From contig JAPLXU010000013.1 in assembly GCA_026395915.1 (NCBI GenBank), forward strand, positions 16,428 to 80,427: a stretch of 64,000 bases of DNA, written 5' to 3'. Under the pieces are notes generated by a model that searched no databases, was not told where the DNA came from, and worked only from the letters and a program-made list of their open reading frames with translations. Made by a program: the position numbers and the translations under genes. Shown one piece after another: positions 10,378 to 62,499 of this stretch. Position 1 is the first letter of the stretch, and each line of letters begins with the position of its first letter. Origin of the DNA: Candidatus Nomurabacteria bacterium (GTDB taxonomy: Bacteria; Patescibacteriota; Minisyncoccia; Phycocordibacterales; UBA9973).

Positions 10378-11088
10378 ATGAGCACCGAAAATAAAAAAGG
10401 CACAGAGCATCCGCTTTCTATTGTTATAAACGAAGCAGTAAAGATCTTTACTGATTTGGGTTTTGAAGTTGCCAGCGGTCCAGAGCTCGAAGATGTTTGG
10501 CATAATTTCGATGCCTTGAATGTTCCCAAAGATCATCCAGCGCGTGATATGCAGGACACTTTTTACATCAAAGGAGAAGATGGAAAAGTTTTGAGAACTC
10601 ACACCTCGAATGTGCAGATTAGATATATGGAAAACTTTGTGAAGTCCAACAGGAAACCACCGTTTGCGGTCATTTCAGTTGGTAAATGTTTTCGCAATGA
10701 GGCAACCGACGCGACTCATGAGATGCAATTCTATCAGATCGAGGGGTTGATGGTTGGAGAAGATATTTCGATGGCAAATTTGAAAGGAGTGTTATCTCAT
10801 TTTTATAAAAAAATGCTTGGCGAGGACACGAATCTTCGTTTTCGTCCGAGTTTCTTCCCATTTACTGAGCCCTCGATAGAATTTGATTTGAAATATAAAG
10901 GAAAATGGATTGAGATGGGCGGGGCGGGCATGGTGCATCCGAAAGTTTTGGAAAATTGCGGGATTGATTCAAAAAAATACCAAGGTTTTGCTTTCGGTCC
11001 GGGACTCGAGAGGCTCATGGTTATAAAATACGTAATGCCGGACATCAGACCGGCTTATCAAGGCGACTTAAGGTTTAATCAGTTTTAA
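10378..11088 (+). CDS. pheS: Phenylalanine--tRNA ligase alpha subunit (short, catalytic core only)
   Basis: Class II motifs: HPARDMQDTFY, FRNEATDATHEMQFYQIEG, GGAGMVHP..GFAFGPGLERL. Confidence 0.85.
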   Translation: MSTENKKGTEHPLSIVINEAVKIFTDLGFEVASGPELEDVWHNFDALNVPKDHPARDMQDTFYIKGEDGKVLRTHTSNVQIRYMENFVKSNRKPPFAVISVGKCFRNEATDATHEMQFYQIEGLMVGEDISMANLKGVLSHFYKKMLGEDTNLRFRPSFFPFTEPSIEFDLKYKGKWIEMGGAGMVHPKVLENCGIDSKKYQGFAFGPGLERLMVIKYVMPDIRPAYQGDLRFNQF

Positions 11089-11091
11089 TTT

Positions 11092-11484
11092 ATGGAATAT
11101 GTGAAAGATTTTGATGCATGGAATACAAAGAAAAAAATAATTGATCAAAAAGAAACGTCTGATCATGTATTTTTTGCTGAACGTGAAATCTGGTGGGGCT
11201 CGTTAGGATTAAACATTGGATATGAACAAGACGGAAAGAATGAAAATTTTGAGCGTCCTTTGCTTTTGATAAAAAAATTCAATAGAGATATTGTTTTAGC
11301 AGTTCCATTAACAAGTGTTGCAAAGAATAATAAGTTTCATCATAAGTTGAAATCAAGCGGTTCTTTTGTCATACTTTCGCAGATGAGACTTATTAGCACG
11401 AAAAGATTACTTCGTAGAGTGGAGAAAATAACAGATTCGGAATTTGAAGAAATTATTAGTAAAATTAAGAGTTTGTTCCCATAA
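11092..11484 (+). CDS. PemK/MazF-family protein (putative endoribonuclease toxin homolog, orphan)
   Basis: EIWWGSLGLNIGYEQDGKNENFERPLLLIKKFNRDIVLAVPLTS ... SFVILSQMRLISTKRL aligns to the MazF/EndoA core (GSEQ.G.RPvlvi...vaPiTs; ..vl.dqiRtidk.RL). No upstream antitoxin ORF. Confidence 0.6.
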   Translation: MEYVKDFDAWNTKKKIIDQKETSDHVFFAEREIWWGSLGLNIGYEQDGKNENFERPLLLIKKFNRDIVLAVPLTSVAKNNKFHHKLKSSGSFVILSQMRLISTKRLLRRVEKITDSEFEEIISKIKSLFP

Positions 11485-11487
11485 AAG

Positions 11488-11520
11488 CGAAACCCCGCTT
11501 TCGCGGGGAATCTCGGGGGC
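11488..11520. repeat. GC-rich hairpin repeat (family shared with 46041-46071 and 46129-46160)
   Basis: cgaaaccccgctttcgcggggaatctcgggggc. Stem ccccgc/gcgggg. Three near-identical copies in the window, all downstream of MazF-like genes. Confidence 0.55.
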
Positions 11521-11607
11521 CTAACGACCATTTACCTAAGTAGTGTATACTAGACGAAAGGTAAAGTCAAGCAAAAAAAATATTTATAAATAATATATTC
11601 ATAAATT

Positions 11608-11886
11608 ATGGAACTCGAATTAATAGTAATTATTGGATTTATAACGACAGTTTTAACTATCTTGGTAAAAATTGTTGGTTTTCCAGACCAAATAAAGAAA
11701 AATTATCAAAGAAAATCCACTGAAGGAATTTCTACGGCTTTTTATGTACTTTCTTTTATAACATATATTTTTTGGACTATACATGGAATTTTGCAAAATG
11801 ATTGGGTAGTATATTTTGGTCAAGGTCTGGGAATACTAACTACTGGTATCATTGTATTTCAAATATTCTTTTATCATAAAAAATAA
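11608..11886 (+). CDS. SemiSWEET / PQ-loop family small membrane transporter
   Basis: 92 aa, 3 predicted TM helices. PQ-loop-like segment GFPDQIKKNYQRKSTEGIS between TM1 and TM2. Confidence 0.55.
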   Translation: MELELIVIIGFITTVLTILVKIVGFPDQIKKNYQRKSTEGISTAFYVLSFITYIFWTIHGILQNDWVVYFGQGLGILTTGIIVFQIFFYHKK

Positions 11887-34361: not shown

Positions 34362-37300
34362 TTGTTTTGCTTTGGATTTTTGCTTTTGGCTTTAGTGGCT
34401 GTTGCCTTTGTAAAATTTTCTCCGGTATCTGCTACAGTATCATCTACCTCTGCAACCGTTCTCGCCAAATCCGATCTCCTCCAATTCACTTCGCATGGTC
34501 AAGTTATCGGTTTCCAAAACACAGGCTTTATCCTCGCATCTCCCACACACATGCTCAAAATTGATTTTTTAAATTCCAACAACATCACGCCAGTATCAGA
34601 TAGCGCGCCAACCACACCTTCCACTTCTACCACCTTACCTTCCACAACAGAAAAAGCCGCTCCGCTTACAAAAGTTACTTACTCCAATGTTTGGAATGGC
34701 ATAGATATTGTTTATGAAGCCAACAAAGATTCTCTGATGAAAAGCACCTATTATGTTGATATCACAAAGCAAGGAGTTTCTCCAGACAGTATCAAGCTTC
34801 ACTACAACCGTCCTCTTTCTTTGGATAAAAATAAAAGTCTCACAATCAAATATGACATTGGCACAATCACCGAATCAGCTCCTCTCGCTTGGCAAATAAT
34901 AAATAACAAAAAAGTTTTTGTACCAATTTCTTACAAACTTATAAACGAAAATGATATCGGATTTACTCTTGGAGCTTACACTCCAAATATTCCAATAGTC
35001 ATCGATCCCACTTATACATGGAATCCTTTTTTGGGAGGAAGCGGGAGTGATACTGGCCACGGGATTGCGGTAGACGTTAATGGAAACGTTTATGTCAGTG
35101 GTTATAGTAGTTCCACATGGGGTTCACCTGTGCGAGCATATACTGATGGTGGTGATGCCTTTGTAGCAAAACTCAGTAGCACAGGAATTCTTATCTGGAA
35201 CACCTTTTTGGGTGGAAATGGAGAAGATTATGGTTTTGGTGTCGCCGTAGATACAAACGGAAATGTTTATGCTACTGGATACAGTAATGATACATGGGGG
35301 GTAACACCAGTGCGATCATATACTTCAAGCACTGATGCTTTTGTCGTTAAACTTGATAGTGCGGGCGTATTAACTTGGAATACTTTCTTGGGAGGTAGTA
35401 GAGAGGATCAAGGAAATGGAATCGCCGTAGACATCAGCGGAAATGTTTATGTTACCGGAACTACTAGTGGCGCCACTTGGGGTTCACCTGTAAAAGCATA
35501 CCTGTCAACTCAAGATGCTTTTGCCGCTAAAATCAGTAGTGCTGGCGCTCTCACATGGAATACTTTTGTGGGTAGGAGTAGTACTGTTGGTCAAGGAATA
35601 GCAGTTGATACTAGTGGTAATGTTTACATTGCTGGAAGTGTTGGTGGTGGCTCCGGTTTTGCCTCTATTGTTAGAGCATATACCTCATCTAATGATGGCT
35701 TTGTTGTAAAATTCGCAAATAATGGCGCTCTCACGTGGACCTCTTTTTTGGGTGGAAATGGAGGTGATGAAAGTTACGCAATTGCAGTTGACACGATTGG
35801 AAATATTTACGTAACTGGACTCAGCGACACCACTTGGGGTTCACCAGTGCGAGCGTATTATGGTTCTAGTTACGATATTTGGGCAGCTAAGCTAGATACT
35901 AATGGCGCTCTTACGTGGAATACTTTTTTAGGCGATAGTGGTAATGACTATGGCTACGGGATCGCTATCGACATTAATGGAAACGTATATGTCGTTGGAT
36001 ACACTTCAGCCACTTGGGGTTCACCAGTGAGAACATACTCTTCCGGTCTTGATGTCTTCGCCGCTAAACTTGATGGTGTTGGTACTCTTGTATGGAATAC
36101 TTTTTTGGGAGGAAATGAGACCGATGTTGGTTACGGTATCGCTATCGACATTAATGGAAATGTTTATATTGGCGGGGCTGGTCCCACTACCTGGGAATCT
36201 CCAACAATTGCTCATGATTTAGGAGCCAACACAGATGCCTTTGTAGCCAAGTTAACCTCCCTTGGCGCTCTCACCACCATCATCGTTCCCACAATCACTC
36301 CAACAGCAGGAAGTAACGGTGCAATATCTCCAAGTGTTCCAACTGATGTAACAAGCGGTGGCAGCCAATCCTTCACCCTCACCCCATCAGCTCACTACCA
36401 CGTAGCCGATGTATTAGTCGACAGTGTCTCTCAAGGGGCAATAACTTCATACACTTTTTCAAATGTCACAGGAGATCACGCAATCTCTGCCACCTTTGCC
36501 ATAGACACCCAAACAGTTACCTTCAACAAAAACGGTGGTGACACAGAAGCAAGTCCAACAACCAGAACAACTAATTACAATACAACAGTAACACTACCAA
36601 CAGCGCCAACAAAGACAGGTTATACTTTCTCTGGCTGGAACACAGCAGCCAATGGTTCAGGCACTGCATTCATAGGAAGCACTGCAGTTGTTGCAGATGT
36701 TACTGTATATGCTCAATGGACTATTAATAGTTATACTTTGACCTACACCGCCGGCTCTCATGGTTCAATCACAGGCACTTCTCCTCAAACAATCAATTAC
36801 GGTTCAAATGGTTCAGAAGTTACTGCTGTCCCAAATGCTCATTATCACTTTGTAAACTGGTCTGACTCTTCCATTACTAACCCAAGAACAGACACAAACA
36901 TAACTGACAATCTCTCTTTCTCAGCTAACTTTGCCATAACTACCCACACCCTCACTCCATCCTCAGATTCAAACGGTTCAATCAGTCCTTCCACATCAAC
37001 CACAATAAATGACGGTGACTCAGAAACCTTCACCATCATCCCAAACAACGGTTACCGCATCTCTGACATTCAAATAGACGGTATATCTCAAGGAACAATT
37101 GCTTCCTACACTTTCTCAAACGTTACAGATAATCACACTATCTCTGTCACCTTTGCTCGTCGTCCATCCGGTCGTCCCATAATTTCAATAACTCCACCGA
37201 CTCCAGTAGTTGCAACCCCTTCTCCTTCGACAAGCTCAGGACAAGCAACCACTCCGCCTCCTTACACAAATACAACAACAGTTTACAACTTCGGTACAAA

Positions 37301-37514
37301 AACTTTAAAGAATGGTAGCACTGGTGATGCAGTCAAAGAACTTCAAAGATTCTTGAATGCCAAGCTGAATCTTAATCTAACCATTGATGGCAAACTAGGT
37401 CCAAAGACTATTCTTGTCATCAAAGCATGGCAGAAAGCTCATGGTTTAACTCCTGATGGACTTATTGGAGCAAAGACGAAGGAGAGGATGAAAATCGAAG
37501 CGGAAAAATTCTAA
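34362..37514 (+). CDS. Large cell-surface protein: signal peptide, SBBP/beta-propeller repeats, Listeria-Bacteroides (InlB B-type) repeats, C-terminal peptidoglycan-binding domain
   Basis: ORF as listed starts at TTG (no in-frame ATG). More than 12 repeats of ..TW(G/N)SPVRAY.(S)..DAFV(A/V)KL..(G/A)(A/V)LTWNTFLGG. 'TGYTFSGWNTAANGSG...VYAQWT' repeat. C-terminus NGSTGDAVKELQRFLN...DGKLGPKT (PG_binding_1-like). Confidence 0.7.
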   Translation: MFCFGFLLLALVAVAFVKFSPVSATVSSTSATVLAKSDLLQFTSHGQVIGFQNTGFILASPTHMLKIDFLNSNNITPVSDSAPTTPSTSTTLPSTTEKAAPLTKVTYSNVWNGIDIVYEANKDSLMKSTYYVDITKQGVSPDSIKLHYNRPLSLDKNKSLTIKYDIGTITESAPLAWQIINNKKVFVPISYKLINENDIGFTLGAYTPNIPIVIDPTYTWNPFLGGSGSDTGHGIAVDVNGNVYVSGYSSSTWGSPVRAYTDGGDAFVAKLSSTGILIWNTFLGGNGEDYGFGVAVDTNGNVYATGYSNDTWGVTPVRSYTSSTDAFVVKLDSAGVLTWNTFLGGSREDQGNGIAVDISGNVYVTGTTSGATWGSPVKAYLSTQDAFAAKISSAGALTWNTFVGRSSTVGQGIAVDTSGNVYIAGSVGGGSGFASIVRAYTSSNDGFVVKFANNGALTWTSFLGGNGGDESYAIAVDTIGNIYVTGLSDTTWGSPVRAYYGSSYDIWAAKLDTNGALTWNTFLGDSGNDYGYGIAIDINGNVYVVGYTSATWGSPVRTYSSGLDVFAAKLDGVGTLVWNTFLGGNETDVGYGIAIDINGNVYIGGAGPTTWESPTIAHDLGANTDAFVAKLTSLGALTTIIVPTITPTAGSNGAISPSVPTDVTSGGSQSFTLTPSAHYHVADVLVDSVSQGAITSYTFSNVTGDHAISATFAIDTQTVTFNKNGGDTEASPTTRTTNYNTTVTLPTAPTKTGYTFSGWNTAANGSGTAFIGSTAVVADVTVYAQWTINSYTLTYTAGSHGSITGTSPQTINYGSNGSEVTAVPNAHYHFVNWSDSSITNPRTDTNITDNLSFSANFAITTHTLTPSSDSNGSISPSTSTTINDGDSETFTIIPNNGYRISDIQIDGISQGTIASYTFSNVTDNHTISVTFARRPSGRPIISITPPTPVVATPSPSTSSGQATTPPPYTNTTTVYNFGTKTLKNGSTGDAVKELQRFLNAKLNLNLTIDGKLGPKTILVIKAWQKAHGLTPDGLIGAKTKERMKIEAEKF

Positions 37515-37931: not shown

Positions 37932-40900
37932 ATGCATACAATAGCCAAGCGTCCGAAGAAGTATTTTTCTAGATACAAGAAACCTCTCGTCGAATTTCCG
38001 AATTTGATCGAGGCACAATTAAAAAGTTTTAAATGGTTGGTGGAGCAGGGAATCGGAGAAGTGTTCAAGGAATTTTCTCCCATTAGCGATTACTCCACAA
38101 AAAAGTTTCAGCTAGAATTCACTTCTTTCTCTCTTTCTGAATGCAAGTATGATGAAAATAATGCGAAGGTAAATAAACTTTCGTATCAAGGTCTCTTGAA
38201 AGCTCGAGTAAAATTGACGAACAAAGTTTTGGGCACTGTGAAAGAGCAGGAAATTTTCATGTCGGAACTTCCTCTCATGACGAATCACGGAACTTTTATC
38301 ATCAACGGTGTAGAACGCGTTATCGTTCCGCAACTCGCGCGAAGTTTTGGAGTTTTCTTTACAGAATCCGAAAGCAAAGGCAACAGATATTTTGGCGCCA
38401 AGATTATTCCTGCGCGAGGTGTTTGGATTGAGATAGAGTCGGAAGCTGATGGAGCCATTTATATAAGAATAGACAAGAAAAGAAAATTCCCTGCGACAGC
38501 GCTTCTGCGAGCTATGGGTTATGAGAGTAATGAGGATATTTTGAAGGCTTTTTCCACGAATTCTATTTTCGAAGAAACGATAAAAACTTGTTTGGCGAAA
38601 GACGGAGTTAAAAGTCTGAATGATTCGTATGTAGAAATCTACAAACGCTTGAGAGATGGAGATATGGCTACAGCGGAAAACGCAAAAGAATTTATCAATT
38701 CTTTGTTTACACCTGAGCGTTACGATCTTTCTCCTGTCGGCCGTTTCAGATTCAACCAACGTTTCGGGAAGCCTATGGATGAAGTGGCGCTCGCTCGTCG
38801 AACTATTTCCAAAGAAGATTTAGCGACGGTGATTATGAATATCATCACTTTGAATAATACTCCCGACGCAAAGAGCGATGATATAGATCACTTGGGTCAG
38901 AGACGTGTAAGATTTGTCGGCGAAATACTTCAACAGAAAGTTCGCACTGGTATGATGCAGATCAAGAGAAACATTCAAGACAGAATGTCTATTATCGACG
39001 TTGATACTGCGATGCCTATCGCCATTATCAACCAACGTCCGCTTCAAGCTCGAATAAAAGAATTTTTCACCACGAACCAGCTTTCCCAATTTATGGCGCA
39101 AGAAAATGTGCTTTACGAAATAGAACATTTGCGCACTCTTTCGGCTTTGGGACCCGGAGGTCTCACTCGCGAGCGCGCAGGACTCGAAGTCCGCGATGTG
39201 CATCCTTCTCACTATGGAAGAGTTTGTCCTATTCACACTCCTGAAGGTCCGAACATTGGGCTCATTTTGCACCTTTCCACTTACGCTAAAATAAATGATT
39301 TTGGAATTATTGAAACTCCATATGTAAAAGTTTCAAAAGGAAAAATCACCGGCGAAGTAGTTTACTTAAACGCGCTTGAGGAAGAAAAGTACAATATCGC
39401 GCATGCCGGAATTCCTTATGATGAAAGTGGAAGAATCACAGAAGAAAAAGTAGAAGCCAGAATCAAGACAGAGCCGGGTCAAGTTTCCCGCGATGAAGTT
39501 GATTTCATTGACGTCTCTCCCAACCAAGCTTTTTCGATAGCGACTTCAATGATTCCGTTTTTGGAACACAACAATGCAAACAGAGCATTGATGGGAAGCA
39601 ACATGCAGAAGCAGGCAGTGCCTTGCGTGTTGCCCGAAGCTCCTCTTGTCGCCACAGGCATAGAAGAATTAGCGGCTCGCGATGGAGGACGTTTGGTTAT
39701 CGCTGAAGAAGATGGTCTAATCTCTTATTTAGATGCGAAAAAAATAACTATCAAAGGGAAAAAAGAGCAGACTTATCCTCTTGTTAATTTTATGAGGAAT
39801 AACAACTTCGCTGTATTTCATCAGCGTCCGTTGGTGAATGTCGGTGATAAGGTGAAGAAGGGCGATGTGTTGGCGGATACCAGTAGCACAGTAGGTGGGC
39901 AAATTTCTCTAGGGCAAAATATTTTTGTTGCCTTTCTGTCTTGGTCTGGATCAACTTATGAAGATGCAATAGTTGTTTCTGAACGTTTAGTGAAAAAGAG
40001 TAAATTTACGTCGGTCTATGTCGAAGAATTCACTTGCGTTGTTCGTGATACGAAACTCGGACCTGAAATCACTACTCGAGATATACCAAACGTCGGGGAA
40101 CTCAAACTGAAAGATCTAGACGAAGATGGCATTGTTCGCATTGGCGCGGAAGTTAGAGAAAATGATATTTTGGTTGGTAAGATCACTCCAAAAGGTGAGA
40201 CAGAACTTACTCCAGAAGAGCGACTCTTGCGTTCGATTTTTGCCGAGAAGGCGCGAGATGTCAAAGACACATCACTCCGAGTGGAACACGGAAAACGCGG
40301 ACGCATTATTGGTGTGAAGATTTTTTCTCGCGATTTGGGACATACGCTTGAAGCGGGAATCATCAAAAAAATTGTGATTGAAGTGGCTCAGATTAGAAAT
40401 ATTTCGGTTGGAGACAAACTTTCCGGACGACATGGAAACAAAGGAGTTATCTCAAGAATTTTGCCTGAAGAAGATATGCCTTACATGGCAGATGGCACGC
40501 CGGTTGATATTATTTTGTCGCCACTTGGTGTTCCTTCTCGTATGAACTTGGGACAAATATTGGAAATGCATCTTGGTATGGCGGCAAACAGTCTCGGTTA
40601 TCAAGCTATCGTTCCGCCGTTTTTGGGAGCTAAACACGAGGAAATCAGTCAAGAATTGGAAAAAGCCGGATTGCCAGCAAATGGAAAAGTGAAACTTTTT
40701 GACGGACGCACCGGAGAAGCTTTTGAACAAGATGTCGCTGTCGGTTATATGTACATGTTGAAACTTCATCACATGGTGGAAGACAAGATTCACATGCGTT
40801 CTATTGGACCTTATTCTTTAATCACTCAACAGCCTCTCGGCGGAAAAGCTCAAGGCGGTGGACAGAGATTCGGGGAAATGGAAGTCTGGGCGCTCGAAGG

Positions 40901-41102
40901 TTACGGCGCGGCTTATACTTTGCGTGAAATGCTTACTATTAAGTCTGACGATATTCTAGGTCGTTCGCAGACTTTTGATTCTATTATCAAAAATGAAATG
41001 ATTCGACCGCCAAATTCACCAGCTTCGTTCAATGTGCTCCTAAATTACTTGCGAGGGTTGGCGCTTGATGTGAATTTAAAGAAAGGCGTAGACGAGAAAT
41101 AA
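37932..41102 (+). CDS. rpoB: DNA-directed RNA polymerase subunit beta
   Basis: Full-length conserved RpoB (…GPGGLTRERAGLEVRDVHPSHYGRVCPIHTPEGPNIGL…). Confidence 0.95.
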   Translation: MHTIAKRPKKYFSRYKKPLVEFPNLIEAQLKSFKWLVEQGIGEVFKEFSPISDYSTKKFQLEFTSFSLSECKYDENNAKVNKLSYQGLLKARVKLTNKVLGTVKEQEIFMSELPLMTNHGTFIINGVERVIVPQLARSFGVFFTESESKGNRYFGAKIIPARGVWIEIESEADGAIYIRIDKKRKFPATALLRAMGYESNEDILKAFSTNSIFEETIKTCLAKDGVKSLNDSYVEIYKRLRDGDMATAENAKEFINSLFTPERYDLSPVGRFRFNQRFGKPMDEVALARRTISKEDLATVIMNIITLNNTPDAKSDDIDHLGQRRVRFVGEILQQKVRTGMMQIKRNIQDRMSIIDVDTAMPIAIINQRPLQARIKEFFTTNQLSQFMAQENVLYEIEHLRTLSALGPGGLTRERAGLEVRDVHPSHYGRVCPIHTPEGPNIGLILHLSTYAKINDFGIIETPYVKVSKGKITGEVVYLNALEEEKYNIAHAGIPYDESGRITEEKVEARIKTEPGQVSRDEVDFIDVSPNQAFSIATSMIPFLEHNNANRALMGSNMQKQAVPCVLPEAPLVATGIEELAARDGGRLVIAEEDGLISYLDAKKITIKGKKEQTYPLVNFMRNNNFAVFHQRPLVNVGDKVKKGDVLADTSSTVGGQISLGQNIFVAFLSWSGSTYEDAIVVSERLVKKSKFTSVYVEEFTCVVRDTKLGPEITTRDIPNVGELKLKDLDEDGIVRIGAEVRENDILVGKITPKGETELTPEERLLRSIFAEKARDVKDTSLRVEHGKRGRIIGVKIFSRDLGHTLEAGIIKKIVIEVAQIRNISVGDKLSGRHGNKGVISRILPEEDMPYMADGTPVDIILSPLGVPSRMNLGQILEMHLGMAANSLGYQAIVPPFLGAKHEEISQELEKAGLPANGKVKLFDGRTGEAFEQDVAVGYMYMLKLHHMVEDKIHMRSIGPYSLITQQPLGGKAQGGGQRFGEMEVWALEGYGAAYTLREMLTIKSDDILGRSQTFDSIIKNEMIRPPNSPASFNVLLNYLRGLALDVNLKKGVDEK

Positions 41103-41105
41103 AAT

Positions 41106-41936
41106 ATGGACAAAAATCAATTGGCTATTTTTGAAAACTTTAAAATAAGAAGGCATTATAACGAGAAAGAAGAAGTCTGGTATTTTTCAGTGGTTGATAT
41201 TATTGGAGCGCTTTTAGATCAGAATGATTTTCAAAAATCTAGAAGTTATTGGAAAAAGCTGGCACAACGACTCAGAGAGGAGGGAAGTCAAGTGGTGACA
41301 AATTGTCACCGGTTGAAAATGGTGGCAGCTGATGGAAAAATGAGAGAAACTGATGTAGCTAGTGTAGAAACTATTTTACGCATTATTCAAACAGTGCCAA
41401 GTAAAAGAGCTGAACCATTTAAGCTCTGGCTGGCGAAAGTTGGTTATGAAAGATTGCAGGAAATGGCTGATCCGGAAAAATCAATAAACAGAGCAAGAGA
41501 AAATTGGCAAAAACATGGACGTAGCAATCAATGGATACAGCAAAGAATGATGGGGCAGGAAATTAGAAACAAGCTCACGGATTATTGGAAAAATAATGAA
41601 GTAAAAGAAAAAAAAGAATATGCCATTTTGACGAATATTATTCACGAAGAATGGAGCGGTGTTTCTGTCCAAAGTCATAAAAAAATGAAGGGGCTAAAAA
41701 CTCAAAACTTGCGCGATCATATGTCCGACGCGGAATTGGTTTTTACCGCTTTGGCTGAATTATCCACCAGACAAATTGCTGAAACGATGGAAACAAAAGG
41801 ATTGGAAGAAAATAAAATTCCAGCAATAAAAGGTGGAAGCATTGCCAAAAATGCGCGAAAATCATTGGAGGCAAAAACTGGAAAGCCAGTGGTAACCGGC
41901 AAAAATTTTTTATTAGCAAGTGAAGTTAAAAAGTAA
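41106..41936 (+). CDS. Bro-N domain / DinD-like (DNA-damage-inducible protein D family) protein inserted between rpoB and rpoC
   Basis: N-terminus IFENFKIRRHYNEKEEVWYFSVVDIIGAL = Bro-N fold motif. Remainder (…RAEPFKLWLAKVGYERL…) resembles DinD-like proteins. Confidence 0.55.
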   Translation: MDKNQLAIFENFKIRRHYNEKEEVWYFSVVDIIGALLDQNDFQKSRSYWKKLAQRLREEGSQVVTNCHRLKMVAADGKMRETDVASVETILRIIQTVPSKRAEPFKLWLAKVGYERLQEMADPEKSINRARENWQKHGRSNQWIQQRMMGQEIRNKLTDYWKNNEVKEKKEYAILTNIIHEEWSGVSVQSHKKMKGLKTQNLRDHMSDAELVFTALAELSTRQIAETMETKGLEENKIPAIKGGSIAKNARKSLEAKTGKPVVTGKNFLLASEVKK

Positions 41937-41940
41937 ACAT

Positions 41941-44900
41941 ATGAAAACTTTAAACACAACTGAATTTGATTCCATCGGATTGCGTCTCGCTTCGCCAGAG
42001 CAGATACAGGAATGGTCTTTTGGAGAAGTGACCAAACCGGAAACCATAAATTATCGCACGGGAAGGAGCGAACGTGGAGGTCTCTTTGACGAAAAAATAT
42101 TCGGGCCGGAAAAAGACTACGAATGTTACTGTGGAAAGTATCGCCGAATTCGTTACAAGGATATTATTTGCGAAAAATGCGGAGTGGAAGTTACGCGTTC
42201 GATTGTTCGTCGTGAACGCATGGGACATATCGAGCTTTCTACACCGGTATCGCATATTTGGTTCTTGCGTGGAGTGCCTTCTCGCATGAGCATCTTGCTC
42301 AATATCTCCGTGATTGATCTTGAAAAGGTTATTTATTTTGCCGGCTATATAATCACCAAAGTTCATGAGGAAGAAAAACAGTCAATAATCACAGGCTTGG
42401 ACAAAGAATATAAAGCCAAGCTAAAAAATGCGGCTGATGATGACATCAAAGAGAAGCTGAAAAATTTGCTTTCCGTCACCAAAAAAGAAATTGGAGAAAT
42501 CTACGAAGGAAAAGTTTTGAATGAAATTTCTTTCCATCATTATTCTCTGAAATACGGAACTTGTTTTGAAGCGAATATCGGCGCCGAAGCTATTTACTCA
42601 ATTTTCAAAAATCTTGACTTGAATAAATTAAAAGCTCACACCGAAAAAATGTTGGAGAAGGCGAGCGCTGCGGAAAAAGACAAATTACAGAAGAGGCTTT
42701 CTCTCATTCGCGCTATGACTTATGCTGGGATCAGACCGGAATGGATGTTCCTTACGATTATTCCTGTCATTCCTCCAGTTTTGCGTCCGATGGTGGCTCT
42801 CGATGGAGGCAGACATGCTACTTCTGATTTGAACGATCTTTACCGCAGAGTTATAAACAGAAATAATCGTTTGAAAAAATTAAAAGAGATCAACGCGCCG
42901 GACGTAATCTTGCGAAATGAAAAAAGAATCATCCAAGAAGCTGTCGACGCTTTGATTGATAACTCAATCGCGAAACAAAATGATTCTGCGGCGATGAGTC
43001 AATCTCAGAAACGCCCACTAAAATCTCTTTCGGACAATTTGAAATCTAAACAAGGTCTTTTTCGCCAAAATTTGCTCGGAAAAAGAGTAGACTATTCTGG
43101 ACGTTCGGTTATTGTTGTTGGTCCCGAACTCAAACTCAATCAATGCGGTTTGCCGAAGCATATGGCGCTCGAACTTTTCCGACCATTCGTGATTTCAAAA
43201 ATCTTGCAGGCGGAATTGGCGTTTAACATTCGCGGGGCAAATAAGCTCATCGAAGAACGCACCCCCGAAGTTTGGGCGATGCTCGAAGAAGTTATTGCGG
43301 GAAAGTATGTGCTTTTAAACCGCGCGCCGACCTTGCACAGATTGGGTATTCAAGCTTTTAATCCAATTCTGATTGAAGGAAATGCTATTCAAGTGCATCC
43401 TCTTGTTTGTCAGGCTTTTAACGCTGATTTCGATGGAGACCAAATGGCTGTCTATGTTCCTCTTCTCGAAGAAGCGCAGTCTGAAGCGAAAGAATTAATG
43501 GCTGCGAATAAAAATCTGCTCAAACCTCAAAACGGAGAGCCGATCGTAAACCCTCGCATGGACATGGTGCTCGGAAGCTATTGGATGACAAAATCAATGG
43601 AAGGAGAAAAAGGGGAGGGAAAATATTTTTCGCGACCTAATGTGGCTATTAGCGCCTATGAATATGGGATCACTTCTTTGCGCGCGAAAGTAAAAGTCTT
43701 AGCGGATACAGCTAAAGTAAAATACAAGAAATTTGATGGGGGAATTTTTGAAACTTCTGCCGGCAAACTTCTCTTTAATAGTATTTTGCCAGACGATTTT
43801 CCTTACGTGGGCGATGAAATGACTCAGGACAGACTGATTGCGCTTCTCGATGAACTCATAGTGCATTACGGCGTGGACGCTACTCCTAAAATCTTGGACA
43901 AGATAAAGGCGTTTGGTTTCAAATATTCGACAGTTTCTGGCACCACTTGGGGACTCGATAATGTTTCTGTGTCTCTCGACAAGCCAAAAATTATTGCGCA
44001 AGGTAAAAAATTGGAAGAAGAAATTATCTCTCAATGGAGGGAAGGTCTTTTGTCTGAAGAAGAGAAGTATCAAAAAATTATTGAAATTTGGACTCACACA
44101 AAAAAGGATTTGGAAAAAATTCTACCAAAAACATTGGATAAAAAAAGTTCCACTTACGATCTTTTCACTTCGAAAGCTAGAGGCACGATGTCTAGCTTGA
44201 TGCAAATGACAGGCATGATCGGACTTATCCAGAACAACCAAGGCAAGACTTTGGAGTTCCCGATTATTCCTTGTTATCAAGAAGGACTTTCTCCGATCGA
44301 GTATTTCGTCATCACACACGGAGCTCGTAAAGGTGCTTCTGATACCGCGCTCAATACCGCAAAAGCCGGATATTTGACGCGAAGACTGGTTGACGTTGCG
44401 CAGGATGTTGTCATTACGGAAATAGATTGTGGTACAAAAGAAGGAAGAATGGTCAGAAGCGAAGATATTTCCGGAATAAAAATTCCACTTTCAAAAAATA
44501 TTCGTGGACGAGTTTTGGCAGCCGATCTAAAAGACAAGGACGGCAAAGTGGTTTACAAAAAAGGATTTTTGGTCACCAAAGAAGAAGCTTACAATATCGA
44601 AGGCGCTGGTTTCACAGAAGTTTTTGTCCGTTCTCCACTAACCTGTGAGACTATTCACGGCCTCTGCGTCAATTGTTACGGACTTGATTTGGGACGCAAT
44701 CATCTTGTCGAGCTCGGTGAAGCAGTCGGTATCATTGCCGCTCAAGCTATCGGCGAACCGGGTACTCAGCTTACTCTTCGCACGTTCCATGCTGGAGGCG
44801 TGGCGGGAACTGATATCACGACTGGTTTGCCTCGCGTTGAAGAAATATTTGAAAGAAGAGTTCCCAAAAATCCTGCTATTATTTCTGAGACAGACGGAGA

Positions 44901-45579
44901 AGTTGTTGAGATAAAAGTCAAAGATGAGAAAGAGAAAATCATCAAAGTATTGTCCGATATTAAAGCCGACGGGAAAGGGGGTGATAAGAAAAATGAAATG
45001 GAATATATTGTGGCTTTTCATCGAACGCCGACAGTTAAAGTTGGCGACCACGTGAAAGCGGGCGACCTTTTGACTGACGGATCGGCTGATATTGCTGAGA
45101 TCTTCAAATTCGGTGGCAAGGAATTGGTTGAAAGATATATCATTCGAGAAATAAATAAAGTTTACGAATTGCAGAGCGCTTCGATTAGCAGAAAGCACAC
45201 GGAAATAATCATCCGCCAGATGTTCTCACGTCGAAAAATAAAAGATGCGGGTATCACCAATTTTTCGATTGGTGATATTGTTGAGAATACTGCATTTATA
45301 GAGGAAAATCAAAGAGTTGCTGGGTTAGATAAAAAAATAACTGAAGATGAAATTGGAGGACAGGCAAAAGCAGAAACAGTTGTACTCGGCATTACCGAAG
45401 TCTCGCTTCGTACAAAGAGCTGGCTCTCTGCCGCTTCGTTCCAAAACACAAATCGTGTTCTTATTGAAAACGCAATAAAAGGGGGAGTAGACGACCTACG
45501 AGGATTGAAAGAAAATGTCATAATCGGGCGACTCATTCCGGCCGGAACTGGGTTTAAAAATAAGATAAAGGCTGAATAA
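41941..45579 (+). CDS. rpoC: DNA-directed RNA polymerase subunit beta'
   Basis: Zn-binding CxxC..CxxC, NADFDGD catalytic motif, trigger loop, C-terminal domains. Start placed at ATG 41941 (the listed ORF 41920 start overlaps the upstream gene). Confidence 0.95.
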
Positions 45580-45614: not shown

Positions 45615-46127
45615 GTGGTGAAGGTTGAAAAGGGGAAATGGATATTTATGCAAAAAGATTTTGATAAATGGAACACAGAGAAAAAAGCTGTAGATGCAAA
45701 AGTTGTAAATACAGAACTTTTCTTTCATGCTCGGGAAATTTGGTGGTGTAGCGCAGGATTAAATGTTGGAGTAGAAGCAGATGGAAAACACGAAAACTTT
45801 GAAAGGCCGATGCTAATTGTAAAAAAGTTTAATGCGGATATGGTATGGGCGCTTCCACTTACTACGCAAGGAAGAAAAAATAAGTATTATTATAAGTTGA
45901 ATCACGAAGAAGTAAAATCGTGGGTTGTTCTGTCACAAATAAAAACAATAAGCACAAAAAGATTTTTGCGAAAGGTAGGATCTATTTCTGAGTCAGATTT
46001 CAAGGAAGTAATTTTGAGGTTGCAAAAGTTGCTAAAAATCGAAAACCCCCTTACGGGGGCTTTCTCGGAGGCCGAAGCCACTAATACAAGAAGTATAAAC
46101 GGCAATCAAAACAAAGTCAAGCGATAG
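45615..46127 (+). CDS. PemK/MazF-family protein, paralog 2 (orphan). The C-terminal 30 aa are probably read-through into a GC-hairpin repeat
   Basis: REIWWCSAGLNVGVEADGKHENFERPMLIVKKFNADMVWALPLTT...WVVLSQIKTISTKRFL is paralogous to 11092-11484. Homology ends near ..ILRLQKLL, after which the ORF runs through repeat copy 46041-46071. Confidence 0.55.
   Translation: MVKVEKGKWIFMQKDFDKWNTEKKAVDAKVVNTELFFHAREIWWCSAGLNVGVEADGKHENFERPMLIVKKFNADMVWALPLTTQGRKNKYYYKLNHEEVKSWVVLSQIKTISTKRFLRKVGSISESDFKEVILRLQKLLKIENPLTGAFSEAEATNTRSINGNQNKVKR
46041..46071. repeat. GC-rich hairpin repeat copy (ccccc-ttac-ggggg + tttctcggagg)
   Basis: cgaaaacccccttacgggggctttctcggag, inside the 3' end of the MazF-like ORF. 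Confidence 0.5.
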
Positions 46128-46128
46128 A

Positions 46129-46176
46129 CGAAACCCCCTTTCGGGGGTTTCTCGGGGTCTCCGACAAGGGAGACAT
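46129..46176. repeat. GC-rich hairpin repeat copy plus adjacent hairpin
   Basis: cgaaaccccctttcgggggtttctcggggtc followed by gtctcc-gacaag-ggagac. Confidence 0.5.
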
Positions 46177-46269
46177 TTACAACGTAAGTATATCAAATAC
46201 AAAAGACATGTCAAGTAAAAAATCAACCTTAATTTACAAGCTTATTATTAAAAATTTAACCAAAATAAT

Positions 46270-47889
46270 ATGAACAAAAAAATTATTTGGAGGGTTATCG
46301 TAGCGATTGTCATAATCGCAGGGGGCTTCGCGTATAATTATCTATCAAAACCAAAACCAGTGTGTTGGCCTTATTGTCCTGGAATGACGGATCAAGATCG
46401 TGAAGCAATCAAAAAATCTGCGCTTGAAGCCGAAACTGCGAATTGGAAAACGTACACAAATACTAAATATGGATTTGAAGTAAAGTATCCAGTAGATTGG
46501 AGAACTGAAGAGACAAAAACACGTTATGGTTCTACTATTTTCTCTCTAGCTCTAGTATCTCCAGAAACTGATGATTTTATCAAAAAAGTTCCTGGCACTG
46601 ATGCAAGTACATTTGACGTTGATTTTATGATATATCCATTAAATTACAGATCTAATGGTGTTCGTAGTCAGGTTGTGTTTAATGGAATTAATGCAGAAAA
46701 AGTTGTATCTGAATCTGAGCTGGGTACTCATAGTATTATCTATTTGGATGGAAAAAATTATACGTATGGGATATATAATATTAGTCCAAGAAACATTGAG
46801 GAGAATGATCAAATTCTCTCTACTTTCAAATTCATTGAGCCAACGACACAAATTGATACTTCGAATTGGAAAACGTATACAAATGAAAAATATGGTTTTT
46901 CATTATCATATCCAACCGACTTTGAAAATGTGAATGATTTAACTGCCACACAACAAAATTCTCTTTTGACGTATATGGCAGTATGTCTTGTTGGTAATAA
47001 TAATTCACGGATACGGCCAGATCAAAGTGGTTTCTGTTATGTAGGAAAACAAACGTCAGATGGGTTTACAATGGCTTCTTTGAACATAACTCCTAGTGTA
47101 TCGAAAAGTGCGCAAGAATGTAATAATACATCTGCTCAAATTAAGCAAACGACACTTAATGGTATTATCTTTGATCAATCCCATCTCGACGACGCTGGTT
47201 TAGGTCACTATGTATCAACAGATTCTTATAGGACATATCACCAGGGAATATGTTATACGATAGATCTAAACATTGAGTCGAATATAGGTAAATTAGAAAA
47301 GGGACTTAGCGTTGATTTTGCTTCTTTGATACATTCTAAATTAGAATCGATTCTTTCCACTTTCAAATTCATTCCAACCGCAAATATTTCCTCAAATGAT
47401 TCTTTGTTAAAAGCTGGAACAGATGTTTTGACTGCATTAAGAGATGATAATTATCAAAAACTAGAGGAACTTACGAGCTCAAGTGGTTTATCTTGGAATG
47501 AATATCCGCAACTTGATTTTACGAAAAATGATATTTCTAAAGATAGCATATCGGATATATCAACAGACAATAAAACTTATATGTTCGGTTACACAGATGG
47601 AAAAGGTGATCCTATCGTTTTAACAAAAAAAGACTATATAAAAGAATATCTTTATAATTACGACTACTTGTATGCTGAAAAGGTTGCTGTAAATAAAACA
47701 TTAGGTAGTGGAAACAGTGTTAATTCTATTATTAAGGATTCTGGAAATAGAACTGTCGTAGCTTACTATTTTTCTGGGTTTGATGCAAAATATGGTGGTA
47801 TGGATTGGACAACTTTGTATTTAGTTTTTGACAAGGAAAATGGTGTGTATAAGCTTTGTGGAATTGCAAAAGACAATTGGACAATTTAG
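46270..47889 (+). CDS. Membrane-anchored secreted repeat protein (WKTYTNxKYGF..KYP modules), paralog A
   Basis: N-terminal TM (IIWRVIVAIVIIAGGF). Two modules starting (T/D)(A/T)(S/N)NWKTYTN(T/E)KYGF(E/S)(V/L)(K/S)YP and ending ILSTFKFI(E/P)PT. 539 aa. Confidence 0.65.
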   Translation: MNKKIIWRVIVAIVIIAGGFAYNYLSKPKPVCWPYCPGMTDQDREAIKKSALEAETANWKTYTNTKYGFEVKYPVDWRTEETKTRYGSTIFSLALVSPETDDFIKKVPGTDASTFDVDFMIYPLNYRSNGVRSQVVFNGINAEKVVSESELGTHSIIYLDGKNYTYGIYNISPRNIEENDQILSTFKFIEPTTQIDTSNWKTYTNEKYGFSLSYPTDFENVNDLTATQQNSLLTYMAVCLVGNNNSRIRPDQSGFCYVGKQTSDGFTMASLNITPSVSKSAQECNNTSAQIKQTTLNGIIFDQSHLDDAGLGHYVSTDSYRTYHQGICYTIDLNIESNIGKLEKGLSVDFASLIHSKLESILSTFKFIPTANISSNDSLLKAGTDVLTALRDDNYQKLEELTSSSGLSWNEYPQLDFTKNDISKDSISDISTDNKTYMFGYTDGKGDPIVLTKKDYIKEYLYNYDYLYAEKVAVNKTLGSGNSVNSIIKDSGNRTVVAYYFSGFDAKYGGMDWTTLYLVFDKENGVYKLCGIAKDNWTI

Positions 47890-47907: not shown

Positions 47908-49275
47908 ATGAAGATTAATATAAAATTTATAGCATCGGTGATATTAATTGCGCTTTTTGCTGCCGGATTTTATTTTGTTGTATCACAGAAAAAGGTGCCA
48001 ATTACTTCTGCAACAGATGATTGGAAAACATACACAAATGAAAAGTACGGATTCGAGTTTAAATATCCAGCTTCAAAATATACGGTATTAGGATATGAAC
48101 TTAGTAGTCGGTATTATAAAGATGAATATGAAGTTGGTGTATATCCCATTGAAGAATATGGAGAATATTCAGGTACTGGACTCGGTATCTCTATAAGGAA
48201 TTTAGGAAAAACTCCAGTCAAATTAGAAGAGCTTATCAATTATCGTCCTCTTGGTATAGACAATACTCACAATACTAAAAAAATATTGGTGGGAGGCCAG
48301 GAGGCTGTTCGAGTTGATCATGATCTTATTCAGATTTCTGGATATGACGGTCAGCAATCAATTTTTCAGTCTTATGTTTATTTTATTAAAAATAACTTGC
48401 TTTATACTATAAATATAGAAAAAGATTCAGTCGACTTAGAAAAAAATATTTCTTTAGAAGAAATTCTTTCTTCTTTTGAATTTACTGATCCAACGACTGA
48501 CGTTTCAAATTGGAAAACATATAGCGGATATGGAATTTCTTTTAAATACCCTAGCTCTATGGGTGAGCCGAAGATCACGCAGTTAAGTACCATGACGTCA
48601 TTTAGTTTTAGTAATAGTGTAGAATTTGATATAGGTGTTTATTATGATCAAAATTTTGGTAGAAATAAAACATTTGACGAAGTTGTAAATAAGGCAAAAA
48701 ATAATCCGGAAGTTGTCTATCGTGGAGAAAAAGATATTACTGTGGGTAATAAAACTGGTGTAGAGCTTTTTCTGTTAGATAAAGTCTCTGGCGGTGAATC
48801 GGTAGAAATTTATGTTCCAAACATAGATAAGCATGGAAATATGTTATCTGGTTCTGAATATAACAGGGCGGTGGCTAATGTTGGTGGTGCTGATCTTCTG
48901 TCAATCATGAAAACTTTAGAATTTACTGAACCAGCAACACAAATTGACACTTCAAATTGGAAAACATATAAAAATGAAGACTATGGGATAGAGTTTAAAT
49001 ATCTTAGTACTTATAGCATATTAGATAGAAGTTATATAACTCCAGGAGGAGGTGTTTTTCCATCAGTAGCGATTGTTCCTCCAACTGATCAAGAAAATGA
49101 TCTAATAATTATTGGTTCTAGAACTTTAGTAAGTACGGCACCTGCAATTTCTTGTAATTCTACATTTACAAGGTGTAAAGAATTTGGGTCAAATATTGTA
49201 TATACTAAAGCTCAAAATAGTAACATTCAGGTTCTGTTTGATAACTTTATTGATACCGTAAAATTCACCAAATAA
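47908..49275 (+). CDS. Membrane-anchored secreted repeat protein, paralog B
   Basis: N-terminal TM. Three modules: DDWKTYTNEKYGFEFKYP, SNWKTYSGYGISFKYP, SNWKTYKNEDYGIEFKYL. Ends LSSFEFTDPT / MKTLEFTEPAT. 455 aa. Confidence 0.65.
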   Translation: MKINIKFIASVILIALFAAGFYFVVSQKKVPITSATDDWKTYTNEKYGFEFKYPASKYTVLGYELSSRYYKDEYEVGVYPIEEYGEYSGTGLGISIRNLGKTPVKLEELINYRPLGIDNTHNTKKILVGGQEAVRVDHDLIQISGYDGQQSIFQSYVYFIKNNLLYTINIEKDSVDLEKNISLEEILSSFEFTDPTTDVSNWKTYSGYGISFKYPSSMGEPKITQLSTMTSFSFSNSVEFDIGVYYDQNFGRNKTFDEVVNKAKNNPEVVYRGEKDITVGNKTGVELFLLDKVSGGESVEIYVPNIDKHGNMLSGSEYNRAVANVGGADLLSIMKTLEFTEPATQIDTSNWKTYKNEDYGIEFKYLSTYSILDRSYITPGGGVFPSVAIVPPTDQENDLIIIGSRTLVSTAPAISCNSTFTRCKEFGSNIVYTKAQNSNIQVLFDNFIDTVKFTK

Positions 49276-61767: not shown

Positions 61768-62499
61768 AAACCTGCAAGGCAAGACCTTGCAGGTTTAGTC
61801 ATTAAAACTTAACCATTCAAAAATTTCTCTTTGGAATGATTTGCTATCTGAAAAATACTCTGGAAAAGATTTGATGTCTAATATTTTATTTTGAATTCTT
61901 TTTATTCCCAAATAATCAAGATAGCTTGAGTATTTATAATTTTGCAAATATTCCAGAGTTTCTTTTTTATTTTTAATTCCAACTTCTTTCCAATCTTTTT
62001 GTATTAGTTTGATAGGATTCAAATGAATATAGGAAAATAAATATTTTAAGTGGCGGTCATCTTTTGCGTGTTCTGATTTAAATTTACCTTCAAAAAGTCC
62101 GCCAGTTCTTTTATATTTTTTATTGTAATACATTGCGTAAGCAGTTGTAAGTTTTTGCATAAATTTACTGATACCATTTTCTTCTTTTTGAGTTATTAGA
62201 ATATGAAAATGATTAGACATAATACAATAAGACCCGATGGACGCAATTTGTTTTCCTCTTCCAAAATCATATGGGCTTTCTCCTTTTGAAAGGATACCTG
62301 CTCTAAAATTATTAATAGAGTTACAAGCAAATAAAAGACCCATGAAATGGAAATAATCTTCATTGTCGTGAAAAATTTTCTGTTTACTATTTCCGCGATT
62401 ATAAATATGGTAATACTCGTCACTGATCAAATTTACTTTTCTTAAAGACATGTATATATTATATACTTGAAAATCTGCAAGGCAAGACCTTGCAGATTT
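61768..62499. mobile_element. IS200/IS605-like minimal element #2 with distinct subterminal hairpins
   Basis: aaacctgcaagg-caaga-ccttgcaggttt (61768-61796) and aaatctgcaagg-caaga-ccttgcagattt (62471-62499) flank the transposase gene in the same orientation. Confidence 0.6.
61795..62451 (-). CDS. tnpA: IS200/IS605-family HUH-Y1 transposase (RAYT-like TnpA), paralog 2
   Basis: HuH SNHFHILI. Tyr region YLFSYIHLNP. Overall similarity to 27972-28607 (…YYH(L/I)YNRG…YC(L/I)M(P/S)NHFHIL…). Confidence 0.7.
   Translation of the reverse strand: MSLRKVNLISDEYYHIYNRGNSKQKIFHDNEDYFHFMGLLFACNSINNFRAGILSKGESPYDFGRGKQIASIGSYCIMSNHFHILITQKEENGISKFMQKLTTAYAMYYNKKYKRTGGLFEGKFKSEHAKDDRHLKYLFSYIHLNPIKLIQKDWKEVGIKNKKETLEYLQNYKYSSYLDYLGIKRIQNKILDIKSFPEYFSDSKSFQREIFEWLSFND

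Follow-up and report, generated by a model that had tools for sequence, protein, structure and literature searches.

A conserved small RNA gene convergent with MazF-like toxin genes of Patescibacteria, most likely part of an RNA-antitoxin module

Two genes for MazF/PemK-like toxins are present in the 64,000-nucleotide (nt) stretch of a Candidatus Nomurabacteria genome that is analyzed here (hereafter the window), neither of them next to a mazE- or pemI-like gene (paralog 1 lies behind pheS and paralog 2 behind rpoC), and a GC-rich hairpin repeat abuts each of them. This locus raises the question of what the repeat is and how it relates to the toxin genes. We find that the element is very probably a transcribed, structured small RNA (sRNA) gene that is convergent with the toxin gene, and the best reading of the pair is that it is most likely an RNA-antitoxin module with a new RNA family, operating either by type I-like antisense pairing or by type III-like binding. 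The host lineage, Patescibacteria, also known as the Candidate Phyla Radiation (CPR), is characterized by minimal genomes and very few described regulatory RNAs.

The hairpin copies, at 11487-11520, 46038-46072 and 46129-46160, are the only three in 64 kilobases (kb), as the initial annotation had it, but each belongs to a unit of ~90 nt rather than ~32 nt, and the functional strand is the one opposite the MazF genes. Conservation extends past the hairpin, ending '..AGTATA..' and '..GTCAAG', and the unit, which faces the toxin gene, consists of TTGAC(T/A), a 16-17-nt spacer, TA(T/C)ACT and a predicted ~50-57-nt RNA with a 6-nt AU-rich leader, a small hairpin, a CCGAG junction, a GC terminator hairpin and a U-tail. 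A covariance model (CM) of 55 positions and 13 pairs, searched over the window and the loci from other genomes described below (896 kb), finds full-length matches at just three places in the window, each of them on the minus strand; the core patterns give ~0 matches in shuffled sequence. The toxin genes, the sRNA genes and their promoters are located as follows (aa, amino acids; ORF, open reading frame; the RNA classes are defined below):

11092..11484, plus strand: MazF/PemK toxin gene, paralog 1, 130 aa, Pfam E=6e-11, start 3 nt after pheS
11483..11535, minus strand: sRNA-1, class 2, 5'-GUAAAUGGUCGUUAGGCCCCCGAGAUUCCCCGCGAAAGCGGGGUUUCGCUUUU-3', with a minus-strand terminator; CM match 11483-11537, 56.4 bits
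11542..11570, minus strand: sRNA-1 promoter, TTGACT, 17 nt, TACACT, 9/12 match, placed as the conserved promoter
45648..46034, plus strand: MazF/PemK toxin gene, paralog 2, conserved core of 129 aa, Pfam PF02452, E=3.5e-15
45615 (GTG) / 45648 (ATG)..46127, plus strand: full ORF of paralog 2, 68 nt past rpoC (41920-45579)
46035..46127, plus strand: read-through tail of paralog 2, KIENPLTGAFSEAEATNTRSINGNQNKVKR, the translation of the sRNA gene complement and its promoter
46035..46085, minus strand: sRNA-2A, class 1, predicted transcript 5'-AUUAGUGGCUUCGGCCUCCGAGAAAGCCCCCGUAAGGGGGUUUUCGAUUUU-3', hairpin 1 GGC-UUCG-GCC, terminator stem 46041-46064; CM match 46035-46087, 69.5 bits
46092..46120, minus strand: sRNA-2A promoter, TTGACT, 17 nt, TATACT, 10/12 match
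46124..46180, minus strand: sRNA-2B (copy 3), class 2, orphan copy, 5'-GUAAAUGUCUCCCUUGUCGGAGACCCCGAGAAACCCCCGAAAGGGGGUUUCGUCUAU-3'; CM match 46124-46182, 43.7 bits
46187..46214, minus strand: sRNA-2B promoter, TTGACA, 16 nt, (TG)TATACT, 11/12 match, extended -10

The sequence of hairpin 1 differs among the three copies, with the pairing kept (GGC-UUCG-GCC, GGUC-GUUA-GGCC and GUCUCC-CUUGUC-GGAGAC). The minimum free energy of sRNA-2A is -22.8 kcal/mol on the minus strand (z=-3.1) vs -17.0 on the plus strand, that of sRNA-1 is -21.3 vs -14.6 kcal/mol, and sRNA-2B folds at -27.3 kcal/mol (z=-4.7), the plus-strand fold being about equal. Copies 1 and 2A are reported as minus-strand intrinsic terminators by a terminator scan, and the U-tail is weaker in copy 2B; the U-tail of sRNA-1 covers the last two bases of the stop codon of paralog 1. 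On the plus (toxin) strand, no U-tract follows the hairpin, and the element does not qualify as an intrinsic terminator there. Searched against Rfam 15, the window gives tRNAs only at the gathering threshold and merely weak, terminator-like local matches at E<=10; with no match of its own at either level, the element is ruled out as a member of a known Rfam RNA family. A K-turn or tandem G·A arrangement for CCGAG...CG was also considered and is unsupported, the third partner base being variable.

A scan of one genome per GTDB species yielded 541 loci with relatives, 80 of which were kept (44-90% protein identity; from Paceibacteria/Parcubacteria, Peregrinibacteria, Moranbacteria, Doudnabacteria and others). 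The downstream element can be seen by eye at ~78 of these 80 loci, and a full-length CM match, convergent with and abutting the gene, is present at 76 of the 82 MazF-like genes (80 loci and the two window genes); four of the other six still have a divergent promoter and two-hairpin unit, and further full-length matches adjoin extra paralogs or a MazF remnant (loci L002, L045, L058 and L021). In the CM alignment, 95.9% of the cells are paired and 12 of the 13 pairs show compensatory changes, values that none of 500 shuffles reaches and that collapse when the pairing partners are slid. Among the 88 full-length copies, G·U outnumbers A·C by 42 to 3 on the minus strand, which indicates selection on the strand opposite the toxin gene. 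Nearly all 88 copies are preceded by cTTGAC(a/t)-17-(TGn)TATACT, which ends ~7 nt before the conserved 5' end of the RNA. The CCGAG junction and the closing CG are ~95% invariant, and the mean pairwise identity is 66% in the 5' half of the RNA and 48% in hairpin 2. Two classes of RNA can be told apart: an AUUAG-type leader and a UUCG hairpin mark class 1, and a GUAAAU/ACAAAU leader and a 4-6-bp hairpin mark class 2; proteins of the paralog 1 type go with class 2. One Kaiserbacteria contig (L045; 22-1598 and 3433-3866) encodes four MazF-like paralogs, including a tandem pair, each with a convergent sRNA-like unit, two of which are of a divergent type without CCGAG.

Interpretation of the element as a 3' untranslated region or terminator of the plus strand is ruled out by the G·U excess, the weaker plus-strand fold in two of the three copies, the lack of a plus-strand U-tract and the minus-strand promoter. 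The initial annotation had listed a terminator among its options, and the hairpin is indeed one, that of the convergent sRNA gene; it had, however, been assigned to the wrong strand and cut short, and the conserved sigma-70 promoter of this gene and the second covarying hairpin had been missed. An antitoxin RNA, offered in the same list, is the option favored here.

The initial annotation also tied every copy to a MazF-like gene. This holds for copies 1 and 2A, and the link is strong elsewhere, but copy 3 (46124-46182, class 2) has no MazF gene of its own in the window. In a related Nomurabacteria genome, a near-identical copy (L002, 5213-5271) adjoins a third MazF paralog (4833-5210) that has no counterpart in the window. 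Judging from this context, copy 3 is an orphan sRNA gene, either left behind by a cassette that has been lost or kept as a spare.

The identification of a MazF/PemK-like paralog right after rpoC is borne out by the Pfam match listed above. The two window proteins, which are 53% identical over 127 aa, score 56.6 and 43.0 bits with the PF02452 profile (curated cut-off 23.1) and far under the cut-offs of the NCBIfam MazF equivalog models, so that they represent a divergent MazF subfamily. The AlphaFold model of paralog 2 (mean predicted local distance difference test score, pLDDT, of 74) consists of an N-terminal helix (residues 5-16), a MazF beta-barrel and a C-terminal helix (115-128), and all top 50 Foldseek hits of this model in the PDB are MazF/PemK/EndoA structures (template modeling score, TM, 0.56-0.74). 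Sequence likeness to the solved MazFs is weak (E ~1e-3), and the family is distant from them. Across the family, 'ERP' (R53, P54) does not vary and 'PLTT' (T72) hardly does; by motif inspection, RP and PLTT would correspond to the MazF catalytic Arg (E. coli R29) and Thr/Ser (T52), with the placement of RP left ambiguous by a loop insertion in the HMMER alignment to MazF-mt1. An N-terminal extension, KDFDxWNxxKK, is conserved throughout the family and is not found in canonical, MazE-partnered MazFs. The window protein is probably a divergent MazF-fold endoribonuclease with a family-specific N-terminal helix and predicted activity. A protein search retrieved 227+ homologs, nearly all from Patescibacteria, and the family comprises 1615 clusters (50% identity, E<=1e-10). 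Compared with the type II MazEF/PemIK systems, the fold and the Pfam family are the same, and RP and T motifs stand at what would be the catalytic positions, whereas the window genes lack a mazE/pemI-like partner and their products possess the extra helix and are only distantly related to the solved MazFs.

Across the 82 loci, analysis of neighbor sizes, orientations and ten selected partners revealed no conserved protein antitoxin gene, because the upstream neighbors vary in size (84-1219 aa) and lie on either strand, mostly with gaps of <200 nt; the downstream gap is occupied by the sRNA unit. A TATAAT box (at least 5/6 matching) ends 5-10 nt before the ATG in 18 of 72 MazF-like genes vs 3.6% of control ATGs (L001-L080), and most of these genes have no Shine-Dalgarno sequence, which suggests, as far as sequence signals can tell, that the toxin mRNAs would be leaderless in about a quarter of the genes. 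Masking of a toxin Shine-Dalgarno sequence by the CCUCC of the sRNA is ruled out, since most toxin genes have none and a quarter look leaderless.

Association with other genes was assessed by scanning metagenomes for exact matches to the RNA core AGTGGCTTCGGCCTCCGAG. The scan produced 120 contigs, 115 of them with enough flanking sequence; six of the 115 matches are due to chance, inside GC-rich coding sequence, which leaves 109 real class 1 copies. A convergent MazF-like gene (31-100% identity) is present at 84 of these (77%). The other partners include NYN-domain RNases (four contigs), HicA, a ParE/RelE-like toxin, a HicB-like protein, an XRE-type helix-turn-helix (HTH) protein, RhuM, RpoC, ClpS and a HAD hydrolase. 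In the 80 genome loci, three copies lie away from MazF 3' ends, namely behind yebC and a Fic-domain gene, both without a promoter, and behind rpoC. Thus, the copies are not spread over unrelated gene ends in the manner of generic terminators, the outcome that the initial annotation had named as contrary to its reading: the linkage to MazF in both the metagenomes and the genome loci speaks against it, even if about 23% of the metagenomic copies do stand beside other genes. The element is not a generic terminator, and its link with MazF is very strong without being exclusive, the other partners being enriched for toxin-type RNases. Phage carriage is rejected, all four exact-core matches in IMG/VR being chance occurrences in GC-rich DNA.

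Several individual loci among these are worth describing. In L031 (3873-4502), a Fic/Doc-domain gene (HPFxxGNGR) is followed by a copy of the element (36 bits) that lacks promoter boxes. In L090 (~7350-7500), and also in L147, L117 and L131, the 3' ends of NYN RNase genes are faced by a convergent promoter unit of another kind, outside of which the class 1 sRNA gene lies as the second copy. Toxin genes followed by sRNA genes in tandem thus recur in L090 and other loci, as in the window.

The geometry of the convergent pair is tightly constrained. At each of the 76 loci where a CM match adjoins the gene, the toxin ORF comes to within 6 nt of the modelled sRNA 3' end or passes it: the stop codon lies at -6..0, over the U-tail or the stem base, in 40 loci, and in the other 36 the ORF runs into, through or beyond the sRNA complement. 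Because there is no U-tract at the hairpin on the toxin strand, the toxin mRNAs should extend across the sRNA gene. The anatomy of the unit, its conservation, covariation, strand and promoter, its linkage to one toxin family and the lack of a conserved protein antitoxin gene are direct observations. On balance, we favor the view that each locus is a two-gene toxin/RNA-antitoxin module in which the sRNA neutralizes the toxin by a type I-like antisense route. Under this scheme, a toxin transcript that runs on would carry the perfect complement of the whole sRNA, including or preceding the stop codon; an abundant sRNA, made from a strong sigma-70 promoter, would pair with the 3' region of the toxin mRNA; and the duplex would lead to cleavage or decay, or to stop-less messages, so that toxin synthesis would be kept off. 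Cleavage within the duplex would remove the stop codon as well as destabilize the message. Because the 5' half of the sRNA is very highly conserved, a second layer or a conserved partner may be involved, such as direct recognition by the toxin or action of the sRNA in trans on sister loci.

The closest architectural parallels are the type I systems of Bacillota that overlap at their 3' ends, such as txpA/RatA and bsrG/SR4 of Bacillus subtilis and the Enterococcus par system, in which RNA I and RNA II share a bidirectional terminator. Like these, the CPR loci are predicted to encode a small antisense RNA that has its own promoter and faces the toxin gene, with the 3' ends overlapping at the terminator hairpin, and lack a conserved gene for a protein antitoxin. 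The differences are that the window toxin is a predicted soluble 129-aa MazF-fold protein, not a small hydrophobic membrane peptide of the type I kind, and that the CPR RNA is only ~50 nt long and conserved in sequence across phylum-level lineages, which is unusual for a cis-antisense RNA. Weinberg and co-workers reportedly described, in 2017, the pemK RNA motif (included in Rfam), which is found upstream of pemK genes in Bacillota. It is likewise a conserved structured RNA linked to PemK/MazF genes, but the CPR element does not match it at E<=10, is located downstream and antisense, and comes from another phylum.

Relatives of the toxin are also encoded outside the CPR. Using tblastn, full-length homologs that include the N-terminal extension (28-41% identity) were detected on the Campylobacter jejuni plasmid pVir, in CJIE4 prophages and on Helicobacter and Nitratiruptor plasmids, all annotated as PemK/MazF toxins without an antitoxin; the pVir homolog (WP_011117588, 30630-31034) is 31% identical to the window protein (E=3e-8). 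A minus-strand -10-like box is located 60-90 nt past the stop codon in all four Campylobacterota loci examined, and a clear GC hairpin abuts the stop codon in three of the four (pVir, Nitratiruptor and Helicobacter), the CJIE4 prophage being the one where it is not clear. The RNA predicted for Nitratiruptor is ~50 nt long, with two hairpins and a UAAAU leader, and that for pVir is ~80 nt, longer than the CPR sRNA. The covariance model gives no indication of homology between the CPR sRNA and these downstream RNAs. The shared layout suggests an ancient principle that extends to bacteria of medical relevance. According to two reports, pVir carries a type I system with an experimentally validated antisense RNA antitoxin, CjrA (PMC7826846, PMC10470494). 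The pVir locus described here resembles the CPR modules in the full-length toxin homolog without an annotated antitoxin and in the putative minus-strand promoter and the GC hairpin at the stop codon, and differs in the longer RNA, which has no sequence likeness to the CPR sRNA and matches no Rfam family. The protein partner of CjrA, CjpT, was reportedly called 'a unique type I toxin' by Shen and colleagues in 2016. If CjpT were the PemK-like ORF of pVir, the module would have an experimental precedent, and the CPR system would be a new, much wider-spread variant with an unrelated, highly conserved RNA.

Several points weigh against a type I-like RNA-antitoxin module. Transcription of the RNA, toxicity of the protein and neutralization of the latter by the former are what we infer. 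A pure cis-antisense role needs no sequence conservation, and a 22-nt segment of the 5' half of the RNA, AUUAGUGGCUUCGGCCUCCGAG, is unchanged next to proteins sharing only 46-50% identity with that of the window. About 23% of the real class 1 copies adjoin the 3' end of some other gene or lack a convergent ORF over 260 nt; among the non-MazF partners are genes that come with a protein antitoxin of their own (HicA/HicB-like, HTH) and housekeeping genes (rpoC, ClpS), and there are orphan copies, window copy 3 among them. The downstream RNAs of Campylobacterota share the layout and no sequence with the CPR sRNA, and CjpT may be a protein other than the PemK-like ORF of pVir. Finally, an unlinked protein antitoxin may exist, by analogy with Myxococcus MazF-mx, for which MrpC has been described as such (PMC4803016).

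The main rival is a type III-like mechanism, in which the sRNA would target the MazF-like protein itself and not its mRNA: bound directly, perhaps via the KDFDxWNxxKK helix, the RNA would inhibit the enzyme in the manner of a pseudo-substrate or decoy, the antisense overlap being incidental. We regard this as possible, if a good deal less than probable. The 5' half of the RNA (AUUAGUGGCUUCGGCCUCCGAGA) is far more conserved than the protein, being identical at 46-90% protein identity, a constraint that fits an RNA recognized by a protein and not a cis-antisense RNA; the N-terminal extension does not vary within this family and is missing from the MazE-partnered MazFs, and the paralog-1-type proteins have a distinct RNA class, although co-inheritance suffices to explain the latter correlation. 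Furthermore, the folds of MazF and of the type III toxin ToxN are related. The arrangement of the genes speaks against it. The type III systems (ToxIN, CptIN and TenpIN) consist of an endoribonuclease toxin that is neutralized by a small structured RNA (PMC3401426, PMC5086642). An RNase-type toxin with a Kid/MazF-related fold and a small structured RNA are thus features in common, but every known type III antitoxin is a tandem repeat array upstream of the toxin gene, on the toxin strand, and processed by the toxin, whereas the CPR units are single (sometimes two), have their own promoter and lie past the toxin gene on the other strand; scans for repeats in the window revealed no array ahead of either MazF gene. 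In addition, occurrence of one RNA class next to very different MazF clades and to NYN, HicA and RelE genes argues against tight one-to-one recognition.

A variant that we consider unlikely is that the sRNA is more than a cis-antisense RNA, namely a sequence-specific inhibitor shared across loci, of which the invariant leader, hairpin and CCGAG would be recognized by the N-terminal helix of the toxin. It would represent a novel architecture among protein-binding RNA antitoxins, type III-like yet monomeric, convergent and with its own promoter. The orphan and outer copies would then be trans-acting spare antitoxins or anti-addiction genes for MazF, NYN, HicA and RelE.

The third interpretation does without an antitoxin: the element could be a general 3'-end device, that is, a bidirectional terminator or insulator with an antisense promoter, which shields downstream housekeeping genes from the read-through of acquired genes, or an independent trans-acting sRNA family at which toxin genes settle. 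Copies behind rpoC, ClpS, HAD, HTH, HicA and RelE-like genes, and others without a convergent ORF, would be accounted for, as would the intact promoters of orphan copies (46124-46214 in the window) and the position of the paralog 1 toxin/sRNA pair between pheS and pheT, a site at which insulation would be important. Still, we judge it improbable. A terminator or insulator needs neither an invariant 25-nt 5' half nor a second covarying hairpin, and linkage to a single protein family at 77-93% is far above chance; other terminators in the window look different (e.g., the D10 hairpins at 61768 and 62471), and no near-complementary trans target of the sRNA, within 3 mismatches, is present in the 64-kb window.

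With respect to the pheS...pheT interval, paralog 1, its antisense sRNA and a 92-aa PQ-loop/SemiSWEET-like gene (11092-11886) sit between pheS (10378-11088) and pheT (11896-13716), which are normally neighbors, and in L024 a MazF gene with its sRNA is located directly ahead of pheT.

Still harder to sustain is the notion that the tail of paralog 2, with the consensus KIE(N/S)PLxGAFSEAEATN, is a genuine extension of the protein, for instance an autoinhibitory peptide, and that the nucleotide conservation is secondary. As had been noticed initially, the likeness to paralog 1 stops before the hairpin, at ..LQKLL (nt 46034), and the ORF reads on through the hairpin (46041-46064) for 30 more codons; within this tail, 'NKVK' and 'SI' are read from the complements of the -35 and -10 boxes, respectively. 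Among 120 homologs, the tail nucleotides are in frame A in 71 (ending '..KIE(N/S)PLxGAFSEAEATN..'), which is what a protein extension has in its favor, in frame B in 7 ('..GGFLGGRSH') and in frame C in 2 ('..SRRPKPL..'; 9 homologs for the two other frames together), and they are untranslated in ~40, which stop right behind the MazF domain. Reading of the same nucleotides in three frames points to conservation at the nucleic-acid level. Furthermore, paralog 1 stops ahead of the element, the sequence and length past 'ATN' are variable, with short conserved patches that are promoter-box complements, and the modelled fold ends with the helix at residues 115-128. By these sequence comparisons, the tail KIENPLTGAFSEAEA is conserved as nucleotides and not as protein; the segment 46035..46127 is probably not a functional part of the protein, and "KIENPLTGAFSEAEATN" is an artefact, a by-product of the missing stop codon.

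An untranscribed DNA-level feature of a mobile cassette, such as an integron attC-like recombination site or a transposon end, would be in keeping with an imperfect palindrome with a conserved core, located at the 3' end of a single gene in many unrelated neighborhoods and present in tandem and orphan copies (window copy 3; L090), but is hardly credible given that the 42:3 ratio reflects selection on one RNA strand, that such a site would not account for properly spaced, canonical -35/-10 boxes or for a U-tail, that no recombinase was noticed among the neighbors examined (no systematic recombinase search was made), and that no true copy is found in IMG/VR viral contigs. The related proposal of an insertion-site relic that delivered the genes next to essential operons has found no direct support; the neighbors vary widely.

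What emerges is a widespread, covarying sRNA family with its own promoter and no Rfam match, linked to a large MazF subfamily whose members go by the label 'type II toxin' in routine annotation although no protein antitoxin accompanies them; in the literature, we found no paper that ties a MazF of Patescibacteria to an sRNA. If the RNA is the antitoxin, MazF-fold RNases would join the RNA-controlled toxins and the boundaries between types I, II and III would blur; hundreds of 'orphan MazF' annotations, together with spurious C-terminal extensions of 15-30 aa, would need correction; and the compact toxin/sRNA pair would be easily testable in E. coli.

The window contains several other repetitive or unusual regions. 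The plus-strand ORF at 34362-37514 (1050 aa) contains internal repeats with a period of ~180 nt at 35106-36167 (repeat families D1, D2 and D8) and a duplicated segment (36420/37077). Tandem paralogous genes at 22157-23848 and 23898-25643 (563 and 581 aa) share several stretches that are 70-80% identical (D3, D4, D7, D12, D16 and D18). Downstream of the second toxin locus, 46270-47889 and 47908-49275 encode adjacent paralogous proteins with repeated 'NWKTYTNEKYGFxFKYP' modules, the first of which has a PsbP_2-like Pfam match. A 276-aa ORF (41106-41936) is located between a 1056-aa ORF (37932-41102), presumably rpoB, and rpoC, so that rpoB may be split or frameshifted. Finally, a 29-nt palindromic hairpin (AAAyCTGCAAGGCAAGACCTTGCAGrTTT), unrelated to that of the sRNA, flanks the gene 61795-62451 on both sides, at 61768-61796 and 62471-62499.

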